Program-made: the position numbers and the translations under genes
From: Escherichia phage JS98
Sequence record: NC_010105.1
Direction: 5' to 3' (one strand)
DNA length: 64,000 bases
Notes under the pieces: model-generated
Told to the model about the DNA's origin: nothing
What the model saw: the letters and a program-made list of their open reading frames with translations, nothing else
The model's database searches: none
Shown: one piece after another, positions 15,476-61,532 of the stretch
How the letters are laid out: each line of letters starts with the position of its first letter
Numbering within the stretch: the first letter of the stretch is position 1

Positions 15476-17601
15476 TACATTTTGAATTTATTTGGTAAAG
15501 AAGAGATGTCCAAAGATGCAGCAAGGATTTCCATAGCCTCATTACTTTCTGAAACAGATTCTGAAACTAGGAATTCTTTAAACCCGTTCATCAATTTAAC
15601 TTCACCGGTTTCCATCAGATGGTCACCATCGTAAACGGACTCACTGAGTTCTGAAGGAGATGTCACTGTAGCTTCCATAAGGTATTTGTGAGATACTCTA
15701 TCATTCATAGCAAAAGCCGCTACTTTATCAACCTTCAACAATAATCCTCGCGGAAGGATAATTTCTGCTTCTTCGGAATATTCTGTAAGGTCACCAGGAG
15801 CGATAACTTTAACTGCTTCAGCACCTCGAATAACCATACCGATTTCAGCAATCCTGTCTGCAGGGCCTTCAGGTGCAATTGGATTACCGAACTCGTCTTC
15901 TTCCCATTCTACCTCTTCATCATCAACTTCGCCTACATCAGATGAACTACCACTGGCTAATTTAAACAACTCATCAGCGGAGGATAAAGAACCTTCATCA
16001 CCAACAAAAACTGCTTGGTTGTCGAGGGCCATATAATTTTTACCAAATTCGCCAAAGATATTAGGCTTTAATGAAGCAGACACAAAGTTCTTAAAGTAAA
16101 ATGTTTTGTTATCAATATTATGGCGCAGAATTTTGTATGGTAAATCCTGACCACGATACAAAATAGTACCCTTAGGAAGTTTAATACCCTTGGTAAATGC
16201 TGAGTCTAAATCCTTAATCAATTTAATAGCTGTTGTATTGTTTTCGGATTCAGGTTTACCTAAAAGGAATAAGTTCATAGGAGCATATTCAGCCGCACAA
16301 TATTCAATAATGGCATTGCTTTCGTCTTTGGTCAAGCCCTTAGGTTTAATGAGCTCGCCTGAATAAGCATATGCATCGCTAATAGAATCGTTAATCAGTT
16401 TATAAACGGCTTCCATAGCGAAAGCAATTCGGGATGCTTTCTCTGAAGGAGACCCCTGAAAACGGGCACTCAGGTTATTAACAATTCTCTTAATAATATC
16501 CAGACTATTGGTAGTATTGATTTGAGAAAGGCCACTTAAAAGTCTATCGACTTCCGTATTAAAAAATGCCATATTATTAGAGTAAATTTCAAACCCTTGT
16601 TTATCTCTATTAGCATAATTTAGTTTAAATTTACTATCAGTCATTAAAGCGTGCGTGAGAGCAATGGTGTATCTAAAGTTGGCAAGGTCCTCACTCTTAG
16701 ATTTAAACTGAGAGGCCTGACGCATTTTAGTAATAGCACCTTTTTTAAAGTTCTGACTAATCTGCTCAATACCTTCGTTCTCAGGGCCTTCGGCCGAGTG
16801 AACAGGGACAGAAGCTTCAAACTCGTTATAAACCTGCAATTCTTTAGGTGATAAAGTTTCAGGTTCGGCAGTAGAATACTGCGCTGCTGCAGCCATACGA
16901 CGGGAAATCTTAGTACGAGAAATAACAGCCTTATCGGTACGTTTCTCTTCAACCTGTGCAATAGATGCTGCTACGGCTTCGACCTTACTTACAGCCTGGC
17001 CGGTTTTCTTAGAAACATAAACTTCACCGACTTTAGACTCAACCTTGGTATAAAGGTCCGCATCAATTTCAGGCATACCCTTGATATCTTCGATATTAGT
17101 GCCACGACGTGCTAAAAGAACGTATGTATGTTTACCACTAAACTGGAACATATCATCGACAACTTTAAACTTACCACCGGTACGGGCCATCGCCAAACGA
17201 GCTAATACACGCTGAACAGTAGGGCCTTTACCTTTCATTTTCTTGGTAGGGAAACGGAATAAAACCGCATCCATTTTAAGTTTATTTACTTGTTCGTATA
17301 TCGTATCGAAAATAGTATTCAATGTACCAAGTGGGTCGGAACCAAGGCCACCTTTGAGTTCAGCCGGGGCACCCTTGCTCGACAAACTCATTAAAATAAC
17401 ATGGACATATTTGTCGCCTGGCTTAACCATTTTAATAGCGTCTCCTTGAGACGCATAAGATACCATACGAGCAACCAGGTTATCGTTACCCGGTGCATGG
17501 ATAGAGAAAATCTGTGGAATACCGGAACCCGGTTTAAGATTTGTTACTGGATAGTTTTTAGCGGAATCACTATCAAAAACCTCGTTTAAATTTTCCATCA
17601 T
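15475..17601 (-). CDS. Alt-family ADP-ribosyltransferase, paralog 1
   Basis: 708 aa; N-terminus shared with the neighbour (MVSYASxGDAIK..VKxGDKY.HVILMSLS.KG.PAELKGGLG); C-terminal R / STS-like (VSASL) / ExE (EAEIILPRGLL) ART motifs. Confidence 0.8.
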   Translation of the reverse strand: MMENLNEVFDSDSAKNYPVTNLKPGSGIPQIFSIHAPGNDNLVARMVSYASQGDAIKMVKPGDKYVHVILMSLSSKGAPAELKGGLGSDPLGTLNTIFDTIYEQVNKLKMDAVLFRFPTKKMKGKGPTVQRVLARLAMARTGGKFKVVDDMFQFSGKHTYVLLARRGTNIEDIKGMPEIDADLYTKVESKVGEVYVSKKTGQAVSKVEAVAASIAQVEEKRTDKAVISRTKISRRMAAAAQYSTAEPETLSPKELQVYNEFEASVPVHSAEGPENEGIEQISQNFKKGAITKMRQASQFKSKSEDLANFRYTIALTHALMTDSKFKLNYANRDKQGFEIYSNNMAFFNTEVDRLLSGLSQINTTNSLDIIKRIVNNLSARFQGSPSEKASRIAFAMEAVYKLINDSISDAYAYSGELIKPKGLTKDESNAIIEYCAAEYAPMNLFLLGKPESENNTTAIKLIKDLDSAFTKGIKLPKGTILYRGQDLPYKILRHNIDNKTFYFKNFVSASLKPNIFGEFGKNYMALDNQAVFVGDEGSLSSADELFKLASGSSSDVGEVDDEEVEWEEDEFGNPIAPEGPADRIAEIGMVIRGAEAVKVIAPGDLTEYSEEAEIILPRGLLLKVDKVAAFAMNDRVSHKYLMEATVTSPSELSESVYDGDHLMETGEVKLMNGFKEFLVSESVSESNEAMEILAASLDISSLPNKFKM

Positions 17602-19689
17602 TTACCCTTGGATGAATTTTTCTGGTATGCCATAGAGGTCTATGCATGAAGCCAAAAGAGGCAGTACGTCAAACCGTGTAGATTTAACAAATGAATCAAA
17701 AGATACAGGGCTTTCGGAAGTATCGAAGTCATCTTGGTATACGACCAACTCACCAGTTTCCATTAGTACGTCACCATCATACACTACAGATTCTTGAAGC
17801 TCATCTGATGTCATAACTTCAGCTTGAATAAATTTATTGTTAGACACCGCCCCAGAACCAGTATTGGCTGATGCATCCACGATTTTATCTATTTTTACAA
17901 GTAGCCCGCGTGGTAAAATTATTTCCTTTTCGTTGGCATGCATGCTTAATTGGCCAGGATAAATCACGTTAACCTTATGAGCGCCACTAATAGCCCAGCC
18001 AACATCAACACGGATTTGATCCGGTGCATACATATGTGTACGCACTTGACTAGCCGAGATGGTAACGCCTTCGTCATTATTATCAATGTTTAATTCTTTT
18101 CGAACATCATCGGAAGCAAGACCAATAGCCGCATTCTCTTTAAAGCCACCAAAAATGATTGGAGCCAATGAGGTTGAAACATAGTTTCTAAAATAGAATA
18201 CCTTATTTTTAACTAATGCTTCGTAGATAGGCGCGCGCAAAGATTGTGCTCTATAAACCATTATTCCTTCAGGTAAACGGTCACCATTTTTAAAGGCAGA
18301 ATCCATTCCATCAATAGCACGTTTAACTTCGCTTTCGTCCAAAACTTCATAAAAGCCCGGTTTATAACGGCCAAGAAGGACATTGTTAATATCAATATAA
18401 GCTGAAGAGGCGTATTCTCTGATAGCTCGTTTTTCTGCAAGTGTATATTGTTTAGGGTCTCGAGATGTTGTTATATTAAGAATTTCTCTAGTTGATTCTA
18501 TAGCGTATGTATACATTATCTTAGACAAGAATGAAGACTTACGTTGTTTCCATACTCTTTCACTGTTTTCATTCAATATCTCTTTTTCCAAATGGAAATT
18601 GTCTTTTCTATAATCTTCAAACCAATCACTTTTAATAGATTCTGCGATTTCATTAGCAGCTTCAACAAAGGCGGCTAAAGCTTTAACTGACGTGGTTTTT
18701 TCATTTTTAATTTTTTTGACAAATTTTTCTAAAGAAGAGTTAATTTTATCACCGTAAGAAACTTCATCCGCAAATTTAAATGAATCATCCATAGTATTAT
18801 AAATTTTAAAATCAATAGCCGTAGCCAGCTTATCCTTAGCTGTTTCGGATGATAATGATAATTCAACTTCGGCTGCTTGTGGAATTAATTCCGCCGTAGC
18901 AGGCGCACTGAACTCATTGGCAGTTTGTTCATATTTCTGAAATAATTCACCTTCATTACGGTCTGCTTCTAATGACTGGCTTGCCGCAATCGCACGACGA
19001 GAAATCTTAGTCTTGGTTATAACCATTTTATCAGTGCGACGTTCTTCAACTTTAGCAATACTGCCGGCAATAGCGGTTTCTTTAGTAACCTGAGCGCCTT
19101 CTTTTTTAGAAATATAAACTTCACCAACATCAGAATCTACCTTAGTATATAATTCGGCATTAATTCCAGGCATACCTTTGATATCTTCGATATCAGCTTG
19201 TTTACGAACTACTAGGATATAAGTATGTTTACCGGTAAATTGGTACATGGCTGGAACTACTTTAAAACGTCCACCGGTTTTCTGTGCTACCAAACGTTGG
19301 ATAATCCGTTGGACAATAGGTCCTTGTCCTTTCATTTTCTTGGTTGGAAAACGGAACATCACAGCATCCATACGAAGCTTTTTAACTTGTTCGAATACTA
19401 CGTCGAAAATGGTATTAATAGCATCAATAGGAGTAGGGCCTAATCCACCTTTAAGTTCGGCTGGAGTACCTTTAGCTGATAAACTCATCAAAATAACGTG
19501 GGCATATTTATCACCTAATTTAACCTGTTTAATAGCATCGCCTTCAGAGGCATAAGATACCATACGAGCAACTAATTGGGATTCGGCGTCGCCAATCTTC
19601 CAAATCTGGGGTACTTTAAGTTTTGGGTTTAAGTTTACAGTAGGCAGGGTGCCTTCGGACTCAAACACCTCATTCAATTGTTCGGTCAT
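17602..19689 (-). CDS. alt: Alt ADP-ribosyltransferase, paralog 2
   Basis: 695 aa; VSTSL and EKEIILPRGLL motifs; N-terminal capsid-targeting-like sequence; position next to ligase as in T4. Confidence 0.8.
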   Translation of the reverse strand: MTEQLNEVFESEGTLPTVNLNPKLKVPQIWKIGDAESQLVARMVSYASEGDAIKQVKLGDKYAHVILMSLSAKGTPAELKGGLGPTPIDAINTIFDVVFEQVKKLRMDAVMFRFPTKKMKGQGPIVQRIIQRLVAQKTGGRFKVVPAMYQFTGKHTYILVVRKQADIEDIKGMPGINAELYTKVDSDVGEVYISKKEGAQVTKETAIAGSIAKVEERRTDKMVITKTKISRRAIAASQSLEADRNEGELFQKYEQTANEFSAPATAELIPQAAEVELSLSSETAKDKLATAIDFKIYNTMDDSFKFADEVSYGDKINSSLEKFVKKIKNEKTTSVKALAAFVEAANEIAESIKSDWFEDYRKDNFHLEKEILNENSERVWKQRKSSFLSKIMYTYAIESTREILNITTSRDPKQYTLAEKRAIREYASSAYIDINNVLLGRYKPGFYEVLDESEVKRAIDGMDSAFKNGDRLPEGIMVYRAQSLRAPIYEALVKNKVFYFRNYVSTSLAPIIFGGFKENAAIGLASDDVRKELNIDNNDEGVTISASQVRTHMYAPDQIRVDVGWAISGAHKVNVIYPGQLSMHANEKEIILPRGLLVKIDKIVDASANTGSGAVSNNKFIQAEVMTSDELQESVVYDGDVLMETGELVVYQDDFDTSESPVSFDSFVKSTRFDVLPLLASCIDLYGIPEKFIQG

Positions 19690-23194: not shown

Positions 23195-23514
23195 TAGAAC
23201 CTCATCTGGAATCCATGTGATTTAACATTACCGCCGTAGATGTCAGAAGTATTGACTTCGCGGGCGACACTTGGGTCGATGTTAATATCGCGGTTGAGCT
23301 TAGTGATTGCTAGGGTGTCACGACCATTGACTGTACGGAATTCTACTGGACAAACCACATCAGCATAGGCCTTAATGGATTCACGAGTAGGCTGTTTGTC
23401 AGCAGGAACATCTTTACCTGCCTTAGAGAAAACAACTTCACAGAAATTTTTACGAGTATCGAAATAAGTGGTCATAAACATAATATTTTCCTCAAAGGAG
23501 GCCGAAGCCTCCAT
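23194..23514 (-). CDS. Hypothetical protein (likely start at 23481)
   Basis: An in-frame ATG at 23481 is preceded by TGAGGAAAAT SD and the 23497-23512 hairpin. Confidence 0.5.
   Translation of the reverse strand: MEASASFEENIMFMTTYFDTRKNFCEVVFSKAGKDVPADKQPTRESIKAYADVVCPVEFRTVNGRDTLAITKLNRDINIDPSVAREVNTSDIYGGNVKSHGFQMRF
23497..23512 (-). promoter_or_regulatory. Hairpin GGAGGC-UUCG-GCCUCC followed by SD (recurrent module)
   Basis: Perfect 6 bp stem with UUCG loop on the - transcript immediately 5' of UGAGGAAAAU; same stem as at 63006. Confidence 0.5.
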
Positions 23515-23522
23515 TTTTAAGA

Positions 23523-23888
23523 TTAGATATCAAATTCATTCAGAACTACATCAAAGATTGCTTCCAGGTGTTCAGGTTTAGCACGGTTGCTCAGGATGTG
23601 ACGAATCCAGGTTTTAACCAGAAGCTTACGATTATCACCGTTCCAGCAAGGATGGGTACCTAAATCACGTTGACGGAAATCATCATCCAAAGCGATTTTA
23701 AAAGTAGAACCTTCCATAGTGATTGAAACCGTGATACCATTTTCAAAGCGCATATAAACGTAGTTAGGAGTCATGCACTGTTCGATTTCGCACACTGTGC
23801 CGTTGTTGTGTTTCCACAGACAAATAACTTCAGAAGAACCAGCGATACCGTTAGAAACATATTTACGTTCGAAGTTGATGTAGTTCAT
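23523..23888 (-). CDS. Hypothetical early protein
   Basis: 121 aa; own early promoter and conserved leader. Confidence 0.55.
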   Translation of the reverse strand: MNYINFERKYVSNGIAGSSEVICLWKHNNGTVCEIEQCMTPNYVYMRFENGITVSITMEGSTFKIALDDDFRQRDLGTHPCWNGDNRKLLVKTWIRHILSNRAKPEHLEAIFDVVLNEFDI

Positions 23889-23932
23889 TTTATTCTCCAG
23901 TTTGTTTTCGTATTATTTGGTACAGGTCTATA
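23886..23932 (-). repeat. Leader repeat copy A (identical 39 nt, about 47 nt with 1 mismatch, shared with 24292-24338)
   Basis: cattttattctccagtttgttttcgtattatttggtaca occurs at both loci, covering start codon, SD and 5' leader. Confidence 0.85.
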
Positions 23933-23958
23933 ATAACACAACCTGTACCAAAGTAAAA
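23930..23958 (-). promoter_or_regulatory. T4-type early promoter flanked by 9 bp inverted repeat GGTACAGGT/ACCTGTACC
   Basis: -10 TATTAT, -35 GTTTTAC by rc; perfect IR at 23918-23926 and 23940-23948 brackets the -10. Confidence 0.5.
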
Positions 23959-23961
23959 CAT

Positions 23962-24294
23962 TTATTTCACAACATTCCAATTTTTCATATCAAGTTTACC
24001 AACTTTTTTCATCTGAGCAATCAGACGTTCAGCACGTGTACGGGCATTAACGTAATAGAATTCACCAATTTTGTTTTCTTCAATACGGCCAGTAATTACA
24101 GTTTTCAGTTCATAAATCCAACCTGTAAAGAAGTTGTGAAGCTCGATGGTAAATGTGAAATCAGTACCCATACCTTCAGTTGTTTCAACTTCGATGATAT
24201 CACCTTCAACTGCAGTCAGGACCCACATGGTTTCTTGATATTCACCGTTGAAACATTTAGCTTTAACAGATGCGTTCAGGTTTACAGTTTTCAT
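23962..24294 (-). CDS. Hypothetical early protein
   Basis: 110 aa; own early promoter; leader identical to its neighbour. Confidence 0.55.
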   Translation of the reverse strand: MKTVNLNASVKAKCFNGEYQETMWVLTAVEGDIIEVETTEGMGTDFTFTIELHNFFTGWIYELKTVITGRIEENKIGEFYYVNARTRAERLIAQMKKVGKLDMKNWNVVK

Positions 24295-24338
24295 TTTATT
24301 CTCCAGTTTGTTTTCGTATTATTTGGTACATGTCTATA
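24292..24338 (-). repeat. Leader repeat copy B
   Basis: See 23886-23932. Confidence 0.85.
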
Positions 24339-24364
24339 GTATCATGCCTACCGGAGATGTATAC
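24336..24364 (-). promoter_or_regulatory. T4-type early promoter (-35 GTATACA, -10 TACTAT)
   Basis: rc of 24358-24364 and 24336-24341. Confidence 0.45.
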
Positions 24365-24393
24365 CCTTTTTTTAAAGATTTAGAAACAAAAAT

Positions 24394-24411
24394 GGGACTC
24401 CGAAGAGTCCC
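24394..24411 (-). terminator. Intrinsic terminator GGGACUC-UUCG-GAGUCCC + U-tract
   Basis: 7 bp stem with UUCG loop on the - transcript followed by AUUUUUGUUUCU. Confidence 0.65.
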
Positions 24412-24416
24412 ATAAC

Positions 24417-24578
24417 TTATGCCTGAGGCTTACCAAAGCAAGCAGCATCTGCACGCAATACTGCACGAGCACGAGCTTGAAGCTTATCAACTACCTGATT
24501 GATACGCTTGTTGGACGCACGCTTGTAACCAGCGCGTTTAGAGGTACCGTCAACTACTTTAACTTCTTTCTTAGCCAT
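24417..24578 (-). CDS. Small basic protein, 53 aa
   Basis: Manually read MAKKEVKVVDGTSKRAGYKRASNKRINQVVDKLQARARAVLRADAACFGKPQA; strong terminator follows. Confidence 0.45.
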   Translation of the reverse strand: MAKKEVKVVDGTSKRAGYKRASNKRINQVVDKLQARARAVLRADAACFGKPQA

Positions 24579-24884
24579 TTTTAAATCTCTTAAATTAGGA
24601 TGCAGGACTTATTGACATTGCCTGCGCAAGCCCTCAAGGGGAACATAGGTTTTAGATATTTAACGACAGGATAACCATAAACCTCGTCATCATAGCTCTT
24701 ATCTGTTGCACACCGTTAGCTTAAAGGTTCCGGGTTCGATTTCTCGAGGATAAGATATATACTGATGGATATATAGGCCTTGAGGCGTACTCCCGATTGG
24801 CCATCACCTCGGGGTAGCATGCACTTGCCGCTATAAAATACATTCAAGAGGTACACCGTAAAACTGCTGGGGTCTTAAAACTAT

Positions 24885-24902
24885 AATGATTCGCAAATCA
24901 TT
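24885..24902 (-). other. Hairpin AATGATT-CGCA-AATCATT 30 nt downstream of rIII
   Basis: Perfect 7 bp inverted repeat; AT-rich stem, so terminator function is uncertain. Confidence 0.35.
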
Positions 24903-24930
24903 AATCAGACAGTTCGACGGCTCCTCGATT

Positions 24931-25179
24931 TTACTTCAGGGTAATAATAAAATGACGTACTGCTTTACGAGCTGCTGAAGCCAAAGGCTTAGCATATTTC
25001 AGTTCATCTTTTGCTTCCAGTTCAGCAGCCAGAGTAGCCTGAGCAGGATTAAGATGTTTGAAATAACGCAGGATTTCCAGTGCTTCGGCTTCAACATCAA
25101 TAGATGCGCCGTAGTTTTCGTGACCGTTGTTCCAAGCGTTGCGTTGCAGTTCAAGAGCGTGATTCAGATGTTTGTTCAT
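24931..25179 (-). CDS. rIII: rIII lysis-inhibition accessory protein
   Basis: 82 aa from the internal ATG (T4 rIII is 82 aa); position between the 30.x block and gene 31 as in the T4 map. Confidence 0.6.
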   Translation of the reverse strand: MNKHLNHALELQRNAWNNGHENYGASIDVEAEALEILRYFKHLNPAQATLAAELEAKDELKYAKPLASAARKAVRHFIITLK

Positions 25180-25331
25180 TTTAAATTCTCGATTCGAGAT
25201 AAAGATTGGTGGACACGTTCTTCTGAATTTCACTTCCTTTCGGCAAGTCTCTCAGTTGTAGTCCACCGCTTAGGATTAGCTAACCCCATACACCAGCAAA
25301 GCTCTGTATGACATTAGCCAATCCATATTAT

Positions 25332-31319: not shown

Positions 31320-31348
31320 TTTGTTTTCTCCTCATTAGTTGGTAAGTC

Positions 31349-39070: not shown

Positions 39071-39310
39071 TCACGCTTTCTTAGCGATTTTCCAGTCAGC
39101 TTTAAATTGGTCAACATCAGAATGGTGAATCCAGAAACCAGATGAGCTACCATCTTCATAAAGAGGACAACCATCACACTCATCTTTCCAGCCCATTTCA
39201 CACAAAGCTTGTTCGGCTTTTTCCAGAGCTTCCGGATTGCTACCTTGGATTGTGAAGTACCATTTGCCTTTAACTTCAGAATCTTTAATTGATTCGCGTT
39301 GTAATTTCAT
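39071..39310 (-). CDS. Hypothetical cysteine-containing protein
   Basis: 79 aa; own early promoter. Confidence 0.5.
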   Translation of the reverse strand: MKLQRESIKDSEVKGKWYFTIQGSNPEALEKAEQALCEMGWKDECDGCPLYEDGSSSGFWIHHSDVDQFKADWKIAKKA

Positions 39311-39336
39311 TTTATTCTCCTCAAGTTGATAAGGCT

Positions 39337-44055: not shown

Positions 44056-47000
44056 ATGGCTGATATTTTAAAACCTGCATTCCGTGCTACATCCGGACTC
44101 GATGCTGCGGGCGAGAAAGTTATCAATGTTGCCAAAGCCGATTACAATGTACTAGATGATGGCGTCAACGTTGAATTCTTTATAGATGAGAACACCATCC
44201 AGGCGTACGACGAGACGCGCGGATATAAGAAAGGGTTTGCAGTAATCCATGACCAACGTATTTGGGTTGCTCAACGTGATATCGCTGCACCAGCTGGAAC
44301 TTTTGTACCTGGTTATTGGACCGCTACCCGTACTGACCCTAAATGGATTACAGTAGCATCTCCTACGCGCCAGTTGGCTTCCGGTGAATATATTGCGGTG
44401 GACTCAGCTGCTAGCTTTACTACATTTACTCTGCCTCCTAACCCTACTGATGGCGATACCGTCGTAATCAAGGATATCGGTGGCCGTGTAGGTTATAATG
44501 AAATCAAGGTTCAATCTAGTTCTGCTCCAGGCGGCGGTAATCAGAAAATTGTTCGATTTGGTAACCAGTTCTCTGAAACTCTGATAACCAAACCTTTTTC
44601 TTATAACATGCTTATCTTTGCTAACCGTCTTTGGCATTTCTGGGAAGCAGGTAACGAAGAACGTGGTATTCGCGTAGAGCCTAATACTGCACAGTTCCAA
44701 GCTCAAGCGGGTGATAACGTTTTACGTCGTTATACTTCAGGTGCAGTAATTAAGTTTACTCTTCCTAAGTATGCGAACCAAGGTGACATGGTTAAAACCG
44801 TAGATATCGATGGTCTTGGAAGTAAGTTCCACTTAATAGTTGAAACCTTTGATGCATCGTCTTCATTAGGTAAGCCTGGCCAGCATAGCATGGAATTCCG
44901 TACCTCTGGTGATGGATTCTTTGTTTATAACTCTGTTGAAAAAATGTGGTATGTTTGGGACGGTGACCGTCAAACTCGTCTGCGTGTTATTCGTGATGAC
45001 GTAGAACTTTTGGCTAACGAAAGTATTATTGTTTTTGGTCCTAATAACACAACTCCACAAACTATTAACATCACTTTACCTACTAGCGTAGCGCAAGGCG
45101 ATACTATTAAAATCGCATTGAACTATCTTCGTAAAGCACAGACAGTAAATATTAAGGCTGCTGTAGGTGATAAAATTGCTTCTTCGGTTCAATTGCTCCA
45201 ATTCCCTAAACGTTCAGAATATCCACCAGATACTGAATGGGTGTTGAATGACGTATTGACCTTTAATGGTAATATAAGTTATACCCCGGTTATTGAACTG
45301 AGTTATATCGAAGACACCATTACAGGCGGTAAATATTGGGTTGTTGCCCAGAACGTTCCTACGGTAGAACGTGTAGATTCTAAGGATGATTTAACTCGTG
45401 CTCGTCTAGGTGTTATTGCCCTTGCGTCTCAGACCCAGGCAAACGTCGACCATGAAAATAATCCTGAAAAAGAACTTGCAATTACTCCTCAGACTTTAGC
45501 TAATCGTGTTGCCACTGAAACTCGTCGTGGTATTGCTCGTATTGCTACGACTGCTCAGGTGAACCAAGACACAACTTTCGCTTTCCAGGATGATTTGATT
45601 ATTTCTCCTAAGAAATTAAACGAACGTACTGCAACCGAAACTCGTCGTGGTGTAGCCGAAATTGCTACGCAACAGGAAACTGATGCTGGTGTTGACGATA
45701 CCACCATTATTACTCCTAAGAAGCTACAGACGCGCCAGGGCACTGAAAGTCTTTCAGGTATTGTAAAATATACCTCTACGGTGGACACCATTCCTGCGAC
45801 TGCTAGGGACACTGTAGGTACTAACGTTTACAATAAGAACGTAGGCAATTTGGTTATTTCTCCTAAAGCACTTGACCAGTATAAAGCTACTCAAGCCCAA
45901 CAAGGTACGGTATATCTTTCTACCCAGTCAGAAGTTAATACTGGACAGTCTGCTAGCGGATTTGCTAACAGTGCAGTTTCTCCTGAAACGTTGCATGCCC
46001 GTGTGGCTCTTGATACTCGTACAGGGTTAATTGAAATTGCTACGCAAGTAGAGACCGATACTGGAACAGATTATACTCGTGCGGTAACGCCTAAAACGTT
46101 AAATGATAGGAAAGCTACGGAAGGATTGACTGGTATTGCTAGAATTGCAACCCAAGCAGAATTTGATGCAGGCACGTTAGATAATGTTATTTCAACTCCG
46201 TTGAAAATTAAAACAAGACTTAATGATACTGCTAGAACTTCTGTCTCAGCAGCCAGTGGTTTGATTGAATCAGGAACCTTATGGAACCATTATACACTAG
46301 ATATTAGAGAAGCAAATGAGACCCAACGTGGTACGGCTCGTCTGGCTACCCAGACCGAAGTCAATGTTGGCACTGATGACAAAACCATCATCACTCCTTT
46401 GAAATTACACTCTAAAAAATCTACTGAAAGTTCTGAAGGTATTATTCGCGTTGCAACGAATACCGAAACCACTGCAGGAACTTCTAAAGTTCTGGCTGTA
46501 AGCCCTTCTGGTTTAAAATATGTAGTACAGTCCGAAACCACTTGGGAAGCTACTGCACTTCGTCGTGGATTTGTTAAATTGACCGAAGGTGCTTTGACTT
46601 ACTCAGGAAATAAAGTTACCGGTTCTGGTGTTAAATTTAACTCAGGTACAGGCCTTTATGAGAATGACGATACTGTTCTGAATGCAGCCAACTATCCTAA
46701 AACAGGTTATGCGGTTTCATCTTACGAGATGAATAAAACTTTACAGAACTTTTTACCTATAAATGCTACGGCTGTGAACTCCGAGAAATTGGATGGTCTG
46801 GATTCACTTCAGTTCATTCGTAGAGACGTCGACCAAACAGTTAATGGTTCTTTAACCCTGACCAAACAATTGAACCTGGCGGCTCCTCTGGTGTCTTCTA
46901 GTACTGCTAATATTACCGGCAACACTATTTTAGGTTCTCTGGAAGTAACCGGGAATTCTACTTTTAAAAATGATGTATCTGTTAGCTCAGGTAAATCTAT

Positions 47001-61506: not shown

Positions 61507-61532
61507 AATCATCTCCATTAGTTGATAGGTCT

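Follow-up and report, generated by a model that had tools for sequence, protein, structure and literature searches.

Identical leaders of the adjacent early genes 30.7 and 30.8 in Dhakavirus: a probable leader copy between promoter cassettes that also mark the joints of gene 30.8

Background

Why do two neighbouring genes of a phage, whose products are unrelated, begin with the same ribosome-binding region, base for base? The question is raised by a stretch of 64,000 nucleotides of Escherichia phage JS98 (NC_010105.1), which is analyzed here as a whole and called the window. An earlier note, made from the letters of this DNA, had pointed to a 39-mer, CATTTTATTCTCCAGTTTGTTTTCGTATTATTTGGTACA, present at 23886-23924 and again at 24292-24330, and had interpreted it as the footprint of a recent recombination or gene conversion between regulatory cassettes.

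The deletions of the T4 rII region are a classic example of how short direct repeats can remove the DNA between them. A more specific framework is offered by the PeSL cassettes, in which an A/T-rich tract precedes a sigma-70-like early promoter with a stem-loop, and the 3' end carries a Shine-Dalgarno sequence (SD) and a start codon; they are repeated in plastic regions of the genome, where they flank genes that differ between close relatives (PMC2839356, PMC4122927). Neighbouring PeSL cassettes recombine, and this leads to the deletion, insertion or replacement of genes (PMC2839356). The T4/PST-type early promoter has the consensus TTTACW-N17-TAYWAT (PMC4122927). A further control acts on the messenger, as efficient cleavage of T4 early mRNAs by RegB/S1 depends on the consensus GGAGRAYARAA, ideally GGAGAAUAAAA, and the site must be single-stranded (PMC1702504).

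We hereby describe the extent and anatomy of the repeat, its distribution in related phages and the exchange of the gene lying between its two copies, and we weigh the possible origins of the identity.

Results and discussion

The locus and its genes

The window belongs to a T4-like phage of the genus Dhakavirus, of JS98 type, and its best matches are MN04 and NC-G, at 99% identity. On the minus strand the order is gp31, rIII, 350 nt of non-coding sequence, 30.9, a UUCG hairpin, 30.8, 30.7, and then 30.6 onward. Gene 30.7 (23523-23888, minus strand) encodes 121 aa of the family PF06919 (Gp30.7); gene 30.8 (23962-24294, minus strand), which is located between the two copies of the repeat, is an allele of the class named A below and encodes 110 aa of the family PF06019 (Gp30.8). 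Gene 30.9 (24578-24417, minus strand) is followed by a terminator-like hairpin with a UUCG loop and a T-run (24392-24413, minus strand), just upstream of the 30.8 promoter. Different Pfam families and a BLASTP comparison of gp30.7 with gp30.8 that returned no alignment allow the two proteins to be taken as unrelated. In T4 both genes are expressed early, as RNA and as protein (PMC9697503, supplement).

The intergenic region between rIII and 30.9 presents a feature of its own, since its conservation between genera far exceeds that of the surrounding genes. It contains an element of about 139 nt (24694-24832, minus strand) for which 137 records of several genera show at least 99% identity, and phages of Klebsiella, Enterobacter, Citrobacter and Erwinia 80-96%; in the loci examined it occupies the same slot, and it is absent from T4, T6, T2, Bp7, IME08, C6, PSD9, TH57 and Mosigvirus. 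Thirteen distinct copies support a six-helix structure with 39 pairs, 10 of them with compensatory double changes; 99.4% of the cells are paired, none of 500 shuffles reaches this support, and slid controls give 0-1. A GNRA-capped hairpin within the element covaries (TCGA/TCGA, CTGA/TCAG, CCA/TGG). Searches of the element against Rfam, up to E = 10, and for tRNAs gave no match, and it looks like an undescribed structured RNA.

Extent and reality of the repeat

The 39-mer occurs exactly twice in the window; a search of the 64 kb with up to three mismatches allowed gave no further copy, and none of 100 dinucleotide-preserving shuffles contained any 39-mer match. The exact identity is in fact slightly longer, 41/41 nt (23884-23924 versus 24290-24330, both on the minus strand), and with the adjoining bases it extends to 52 of 55 positions (23884-23938 versus 24290-24344), the two copies being spaced by 406 nt. 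The edges of the repeat are sharp: past it, the in-register identity is that of background, 21/68 farther upstream of the promoters and 7/28 in the coding sequence. Both genes lie on the minus strand, where the "cat" of the 39-mer is the complement of ATG, and on the coding strand the repeat reads TGTACCAAATAATACGAAAACAAACTGGAGAATAAAATGAA, comprising the leader, the SD (GGAG) and the ATG with two more bases. The open reading frames, Pfam and BLASTP bear out that the segment comprises the 5' leader, SD and start codon of two early genes that are unrelated and lie next to each other. That the coding sequences and the promoters of the two genes differ, as had also been stated, is correct for the coding sequences and for the DNA upstream of the -10 elements, but the promoters, although separate copies, belong to one T4-type family and their -10 regions agree in register at 11 of 14 positions.

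An assembly artefact had been named as the result that would refute the repeat. It is excluded, because at least 57 phage records, sequenced independently, contain the 55-mer at 99% identity or more, every close relative among the matches listed having it in two places, and because point differences specific to one copy are present in IME08, QL01, IME281, VR5 and PSD9.

Anatomy of the two cassettes

In both copies the 41 identical nucleotides correspond to the predicted transcribed leader, the SD and ATG+AA, of gene 30.7 in copy 1 and of gene 30.8 in copy 2. The partially identical extension of copy 1, GTTATTATAGACC (23925-23938, minus strand), covers the -10 of the 30.7 promoter, and that of copy 2 (24331-24344, minus strand) covers the -10 of the 30.8 promoter and falls within the 15-mer CATGATACTATAGAC (24332-24346). 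The predicted early promoter of 30.7 (23930-23957, minus strand) is TTTACT-16-TATTAT, with a TG before the -10 and a score of 9/12, and is conserved in T4, T6, Mosigvirus and Gaprivervirus; the predicted promoter of 30.8 (24336-24363, minus strand) is TATACA-16-TACTAT, with an A-tract upstream and a weaker match to the sigma-70 consensus (8/12), and is orthologous to the 30.8 promoter of Mosigvirus. By the usual spacing we infer that transcription starts at or next to TGTACC, so that the repeat would be the whole 5' untranslated region.

The extended -10 of the 30.8 promoter, CATGATACTATAGAC, is found in six exact copies in the window, all in one orientation and each with an SD and an ATG 15-40 nt downstream. 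About 11 similar cassettes are present in the window, several of them with stems around the -10, and as sequence motifs the CATGATACTATAGAC sites define a dispersed family of putative early-promoter cassettes.

Around the -10 of the 30.7 promoter a stem-loop is predicted (23916-23952, minus strand), TTTGGTACAGG...CCTGTACCAAA, with a stem of 11-12 bp and -18.8 kcal/mol (z = -4.97); none of 200 shuffles folds as well, and the first 9 nt of repeat copy 1 form part of its 3' arm. The stem-loop at the 30.8 promoter is weak (z = -1.76); about 30 nt separate the -35 of this promoter from the UUCG terminator hairpin upstream. A/T-rich tracts, TTTAAAAAAAGGG and GAAATAAATG, precede the -35 elements, and the cassettes end at their 3' side with GGAGAATAAAATG. 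For the leaders with the first codons, minimum free energies of 0 and -0.7 kcal/mol are predicted, and shuffled sequences are more structured. A riboswitch or attenuator was considered and rejected, because the leader is predicted to be free of structure; a known RNA element was also rejected, as the Rfam search of 23400-25300 gave only a chance match to mir-12 below threshold.

A candidate RegB/S1 site in both leaders

The last 11 bases of the leader before UG are GGAGAAUAAAA. The corresponding GGAGAATAAAA, at 23888-23898 for 30.7 and at 24294-24304 for 30.8 (both on the minus strand), is at the same time the SD and an exact match to the 11-nt RegB/S1 consensus. Exact GGAGAAUAAAA sites number three in the 64 kb, two of them inside the repeat, and the predicted energies of the leaders (0 to -0.7 kcal/mol) suggest that both of these are single-stranded. 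RegB homologues with 58-60% aa identity to the T4 protein are encoded by the Dhakaviruses dhaeg, QL01 and fDHCT2; in the phage studied here the regB locus should lie outside the 64-kb window, by synteny with T4. The two sites thus resemble the RegB/S1 targets of T4 (Durand et al. 2006, PMC1702504) in being an exact, predicted single-stranded 11-nt consensus in the SD of early genes, in a genus that encodes a RegB homologue. They differ in that the Dhakavirus enzyme, only 58-60% identical to that of T4, is assumed to have the same specificity, and in that the Dhakavirus 30.7 and 30.8 sites are candidates from a consensus match.

Leaders of 30.7 and 30.8 in related phages

Orthologous leaders in T4, T6, Mosigvirus and Gaprivervirus resemble the Dhakavirus leader at 48-75% in a core of 20 nt. 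In T4 and T6 the leaders of 30.7 and 30.8 have only GGAGAATAAAATGAA in common; in Mosigvirus both leaders are built on one frame (TATAGACNTGTACCA...GGAGAATAAAATG) with different cores, and in Gaprivervirus TH57 the 30.8 leader is unrelated. The identity of the two Dhakavirus leaders is thus attributable to copying rather than to inheritance, because the outgroup leaders diverge and differ between the two genes within T4 and within Mosigvirus. The box GGAGAATAAAATGAA, the last 15 nt, is also present in the T4 orthologues and conserved at both genes in several genera; its role as SD and putative RegB/S1 site argues that it has been conserved for function and not through the Dhakavirus copying event, and the part homogenised specifically in Dhakavirus would be only the approximately 26 nt upstream of it. 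Moreover, since the promoter half lying upstream of the 30.8 leader copy is orthologous to the 30.8 promoter of Mosigvirus, only the stretch between pre-existing patches of homology would have been overwritten.

Copying is therefore the part of the earlier interpretation that stands. Its being recent does not, as the duplication is common to the whole genus Dhakavirus; the event is recent only in relative terms and is old for the genus. Single copies have changed since: IME08 has A for G, QL01 and IME281 have T for G, the SD before 30.7 ends differently in VR5 and PSD9, and IME341 has one extra identical base. Such independent point changes argue against a continuous concerted evolution of the two copies. 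The best outgroup match to the Dhakavirus leader is at only 75%, and either leader may have been the donor. A recurrent homogenisation in other lineages was also considered and was dropped, as the identity of the whole cassettes within one genome (72-78%) is no higher than between genomes; on these comparisons the homogenised leader appears only in Dhakavirus.

Exchange and deletion of gene 30.8

Comparison of the window with Dhakavirus CLB_P2 delimits precisely what has been exchanged. The flanks are 96-99% identical, across 30.6-30.7 on one side and 30.9-rIII on the other, and the only divergent stretch is a block at 23958-24287 (minus strand; 57% nucleotide identity), bounded by ATGAAAA (24288), right after which it starts, and by the -35 of the 30.7 promoter (23957). 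It carries two classes of 30.8 alleles, with 37% aa identity and both belonging to PF06019: class A, of 110 aa, in the window, MN04 and Bp7, and class B, of 122 aa, in CLB_P2, IME08, C6 and PSD9. The class B gene of Dhakavirus is 94-95% identical to that of Gaprivervirus TH57, and the values for 30.7 and rIII are 83-84%; being closer than its flanks, it has been transferred laterally between genera. High identity to TH57 begins exactly at ACTGGAGAATAAAATG and extends across the 30.7 promoter as far as about nt 25 of 30.7. All four combinations of 30.8 class and upstream 30.9 haplotype exist, and so do all four with the downstream 30.6/30.7 haplotype, which indicates repeated exchange on both sides.

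The same swap of A and B, with the identical two breakpoints, is found in Tequatrovirus, between G9062 and T4 and T6. The leaders of these phages are not identical, therefore the identity of 41 nt is not needed for the exchange. A short SD/ATG box together with the 30.7 promoter cassette is enough, and the 41-nt identity is best described as a footprint of recombination.

Gene 30.8 can also be absent. T2 (8 records) and Salmonella phage Manna lack it, and in them the coding sequence of 30.7 directly follows the promoter and leader of 30.8; the junction falls inside GGAGAATAAAA(A)TGAAC, a 15-nt direct repeat of T4-type genomes located in the GGAGAATAAAATGAA box. Among the best 60 records retrieved with a synthetic deletion product as query no Dhakavirus without 30.8 was found, despite the direct repeat of 41-55 nt, so either 30.8 is selected for or its excision is rare. 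Taken together, the breakpoints located at the cassettes in Dhakavirus, Tequatrovirus, Gaprivervirus and T2/Manna point to the cassettes as recombination joints.

At the borders of this picture, C6 and TH57 have an extra gene of 118 aa just after the 30.9 terminator. A scan of IMG/VR with CATTTTATTCTCC-N12-30-GGTACA gave 44 loci, only about a dozen of which are the 30.7/30.8 locus; the others are mostly unrelated genes that have only the GGAGAATAAAATG box in common. Matches to the 55-mer in Klebsiella Jiaodavirus are at another locus.

Origin of the identical leaders

The reading that we consider probable is that the 30.7/30.8 identity is a leader copy, specific to Dhakavirus, produced by recombination between cassettes of the PeSL kind that also mark the joints of 30.8. 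In each cassette, an early promoter of the T4 sigma-70 type would be preceded by an A/T-rich tract, carry a stem-loop around its -10 and be followed by an A-rich leader free of structure and by the box GGAGAAUAAAAUG, and the two cassettes would be arranged in tandem, one driving 30.8 and the next 30.7. In an ancestor of Dhakavirus, the sequence of one leader would have overwritten the variable core of the other, about 26 nt, through homologous recombination or patch gene conversion, possibly primed by the patches already common to both cassettes, TATAGACNTGTACC at the transcription start and GGAGAATAAAATGAA at the start codon. As a consequence both mRNAs would have one open, S1-friendly ribosome-binding region with a perfect RegB/S1 site in the SD, and 30.7 and 30.8 would therefore turn on early and shut off together; these functional steps are suggested by consensus matches and by orthology to T4. 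Comparison of genomes shows that replacement and deletion of 30.8 have their joints in the cassettes, and the repeat would thus be both a product and a substrate of cassette-to-cassette recombination.

The two identical copies could alternatively have been generated by re-insertion. A circular or linear 30.8 cassette with one leader, such as a PeSL mini-circle, may have been integrated before 30.7 by homologous recombination into the 30.7 leader of an ancestor that, as T2 today, had no 30.8; the entry of a cassette bearing a leader would automatically leave two identical copies at its flanks. Phages without 30.8 and with a single hybrid cassette do exist (T2 and Manna), the gene has moved between genera, and mini-circles with re-integration have been proposed, the circles being physically detected in RB49/phi1 (PMC2839356). 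Yet the orthology of the Dhakavirus 30.8 promoter to that of Mosigvirus makes the slot look continuously occupied, and the best 60 records include no Dhakavirus lacking 30.8. Although re-insertion and gene conversion are not separable from sequence alone, we regard re-insertion as possible and rather unlikely.

A bolder form of this idea would make the whole 406-bp unit (30.8, the 30.7 promoter and one leader) a self-contained mobile cassette, which would frequently leave as a mini-circle through the 41-55-nt repeats and re-enter other T4-like genomes at any leader with the RegB/SD box at its end, the two leaders being kept identical by selection. If this were true, the leader would be a portable module for translation and RegB shut-off, co-regulating gp30.7 and gp30.8. 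In IMG/VR, 18 of 20 homologues of 30.8 are in one slot, rIII-30.9-30.8-30.7, and the remaining two, with different neighbours, are distant and too divergent to interpret. We hold such a mobile unit to be improbable.

Convergence or constraint without any copying, under selection for an optimal leader or for a common regulator, might be suspected from the 3' 15 nt, GGAGAATAAAATGAA, which are a match to a functional consensus retained at both genes in several genera, and from the predicted lack of structure in both leaders. The 20-nt core, however, changes fast between genera (48-75%), tolerates single changes within the genus (IME08, QL01, IME281) and differs between 30.7 and 30.8 in T4 and in Mosigvirus, so that the independent identity of 20 out of 20 positions is not credible, and this explanation is very improbable. 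As barely conceivable we consider a remnant of tandem duplication, in which one ancestral gene with its leader was duplicated and the coding sequences then diverged past recognition: the repeats are direct and each precedes a small gene of similar size, but the proteins fall in different families with no alignment, T4 has both genes with unrelated leaders, and a non-coding leader 100% identical beside fully diverged coding sequences is implausible. Chance or an assembly artefact, a general possibility with nothing further in its favour, is negligible in view of the shuffles and of the dozens of independent genomes carrying the pair, some with copy-specific differences.

Comparison with known systems

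All the sequence-level features of PeSL (Arbiol et al. 2010; Comeau et al. 2014) are found at the locus: promoters that match the T4/PST-type consensus, a stem-loop, an A/T tract with SD/ATG, a repeat family, and cassette joints. As in PeSL, the motif is composite and intergenic, with a stem-loop at or overlapping the -10; it is repeated through plastic, non-essential early regions, and its neighbours are small genes of unknown function that vary between close relatives through insertion, deletion or replacement. The differences are that the perfectly identical part is here the predicted transcribed leader and not the promoter/stem-loop, that the two promoter halves are similar only at the level of the family, and that the stem-loop at the 30.7 promoter has no following U-run. 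By these sequence features the 30.7/30.8 cassettes are of the PeSL kind, a concept already published. What is added here is that the perfect identity is confined to the leader, that the minimal joint falls on the RegB/S1 box, and that conversion, replacement and deletion are all found at one locus.

Two other phenomena are comparable as far as they are cited in PMC4122927. The shuffling of the IP locus in T-even phages (Repoila et al. 1994) similarly exchanges alternative small genes within one slot among related T-even phages, but the IP locus has a different genomic position and codes for virion proteins that are injected. The loss of 30.8 in T2 and Manna, with its junction inside a 15-nt direct repeat, resembles the deletions between short direct repeats referred to in the same source (Albertini et al. 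1982); the repeats differ here in being functional regulatory boxes at gene starts, and the deletion product is consequently a viable fusion of a promoter to a gene.

Conclusions

One locus displays three outcomes: the homogenisation of a leader in Dhakavirus, the replacement of an allele in Dhakavirus, Gaprivervirus and Tequatrovirus, and a precise deletion in T2 and Manna. The joints sit in regulatory cassettes, therefore every recombinant would stay correctly expressed. The shortest joint common to these cases coincides with the RegB/S1 and SD box, which suggests that an element of post-transcriptional control doubles as a universal recombination linker. The finding leaves the current understanding of T4-like phages unchanged and is a modest addition to it, as a clean and well-delimited natural example of how small accessory genes are exchanged in these phages.

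Gene gain and loss around 30.8

One Dhakavirus, phage C6 (locus L054, 1395-1751), and the Gaprivervirus TH57 (locus L005, 2574-2930) carry an inserted extra gene of 118 aa that follows the 30.9 terminator and precedes the 30.8 promoter. This gene belongs to phrog_17531 and has its own terminator; no Pfam match was obtained for it. In more distant T4-like phages, namely the phage of IMG/VR record 3300045988_066482 (locus L010, 1831-2343) and the Karamvirus-like loci L085-L088, the distance from the end of 30.8 to the start of 30.7 is about 640 nt, versus some 75 nt. The gap contains an ORF of 170 aa in L010, and the slot thus also takes insertions.

The opposite event is a natural deletion of 30.8, found in phage T2 (locus L058, 1630-1740) and in Salmonella phage Manna (locus L060, 1271-1380). 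In both phages the 30.7 coding sequence is fused to the promoter and leader of 30.8; the junction falls within the GGAGAATAAAATGAA box, and the ATG is preceded there by five A's in T2 and by four in Manna.

At the end of the 30.7 leader copy, PSD9 (locus L055, about 840-885) and VR5 (locus L013, about 170-212) have another SD region, AAACCAAAGGATAATAAAATG, devoid of the RegB consensus; PSD9 also carries a Gaprivervirus-type 30.7 gene. This is a further joint, located inside the leader. Apart from the two leader copies, the only exact GGAGAATAAAA site in the window is at 39310-39320 (minus strand), in the SD of a gene lying behind a promoter cassette.

The intergenic region between rIII and 30.9

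A structured RNA candidate of about 139 nt lies on the minus strand between rIII and 30.9 (window 24694-24832). Its model comprises 39 pairs in six helices, 10 of the pairs with compensatory changes, and it includes a GNRA-capped hairpin that covaries; 99.4% of cells are paired and none of 500 shuffles was equally good. The candidate is found at an identity of at least 99% in 137 phage records from several genera; in phages of Klebsiella, Enterobacter and Erwinia the identity is 80-96%. Its slot is unchanged among the relatives' loci examined. T4, T6, T2, Bp7, IME08, TH57 and Mosigvirus lack it, and an Rfam search gave no match at E values up to 10.

The remainder of this intergenic region (24579-24693 and 24833-24930) is near-invariant across T4, Mosigvirus, Gaprivervirus and Dhakavirus, as exemplified by CCTATGTTCCCCTTGAGGGCTTGCGCAGGCAATG.CAATAAGTCCTGCAT, with just 68-92% identity in the flanking genes. 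Some records annotate small ORFs in it.

Repeats and dispersed cassettes in the window

Longer diverged direct repeats of 70-83% identity (88-379 and 1369-1660; 746-942 and 2033-2229; 17005-17475 and 19102-19572) and a four-copy periodic repeat of 69 nt (45481-46350) probably correspond to paralogous genes and to repeats within proteins.

Early-promoter cassettes of the form GTTTAC-N14-CATGATACTATAGACCTATCAACTAA, followed by an SD and an ATG, are dispersed through the window, all in the same orientation. Their 15-mer starts at 24332, 39625, 40706, 57413, 57738 and 61529 (plus-strand coordinates), and related cassettes are located near 31347, 39333, 43975 and 61940. Several can form stems pairing the spacer with the leader. 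In the cassettes at 61529 and 31347 the SD lies inside the 3' arm of the stem, so that it would be masked in read-through transcripts and free in transcripts from the cassette's own promoter.
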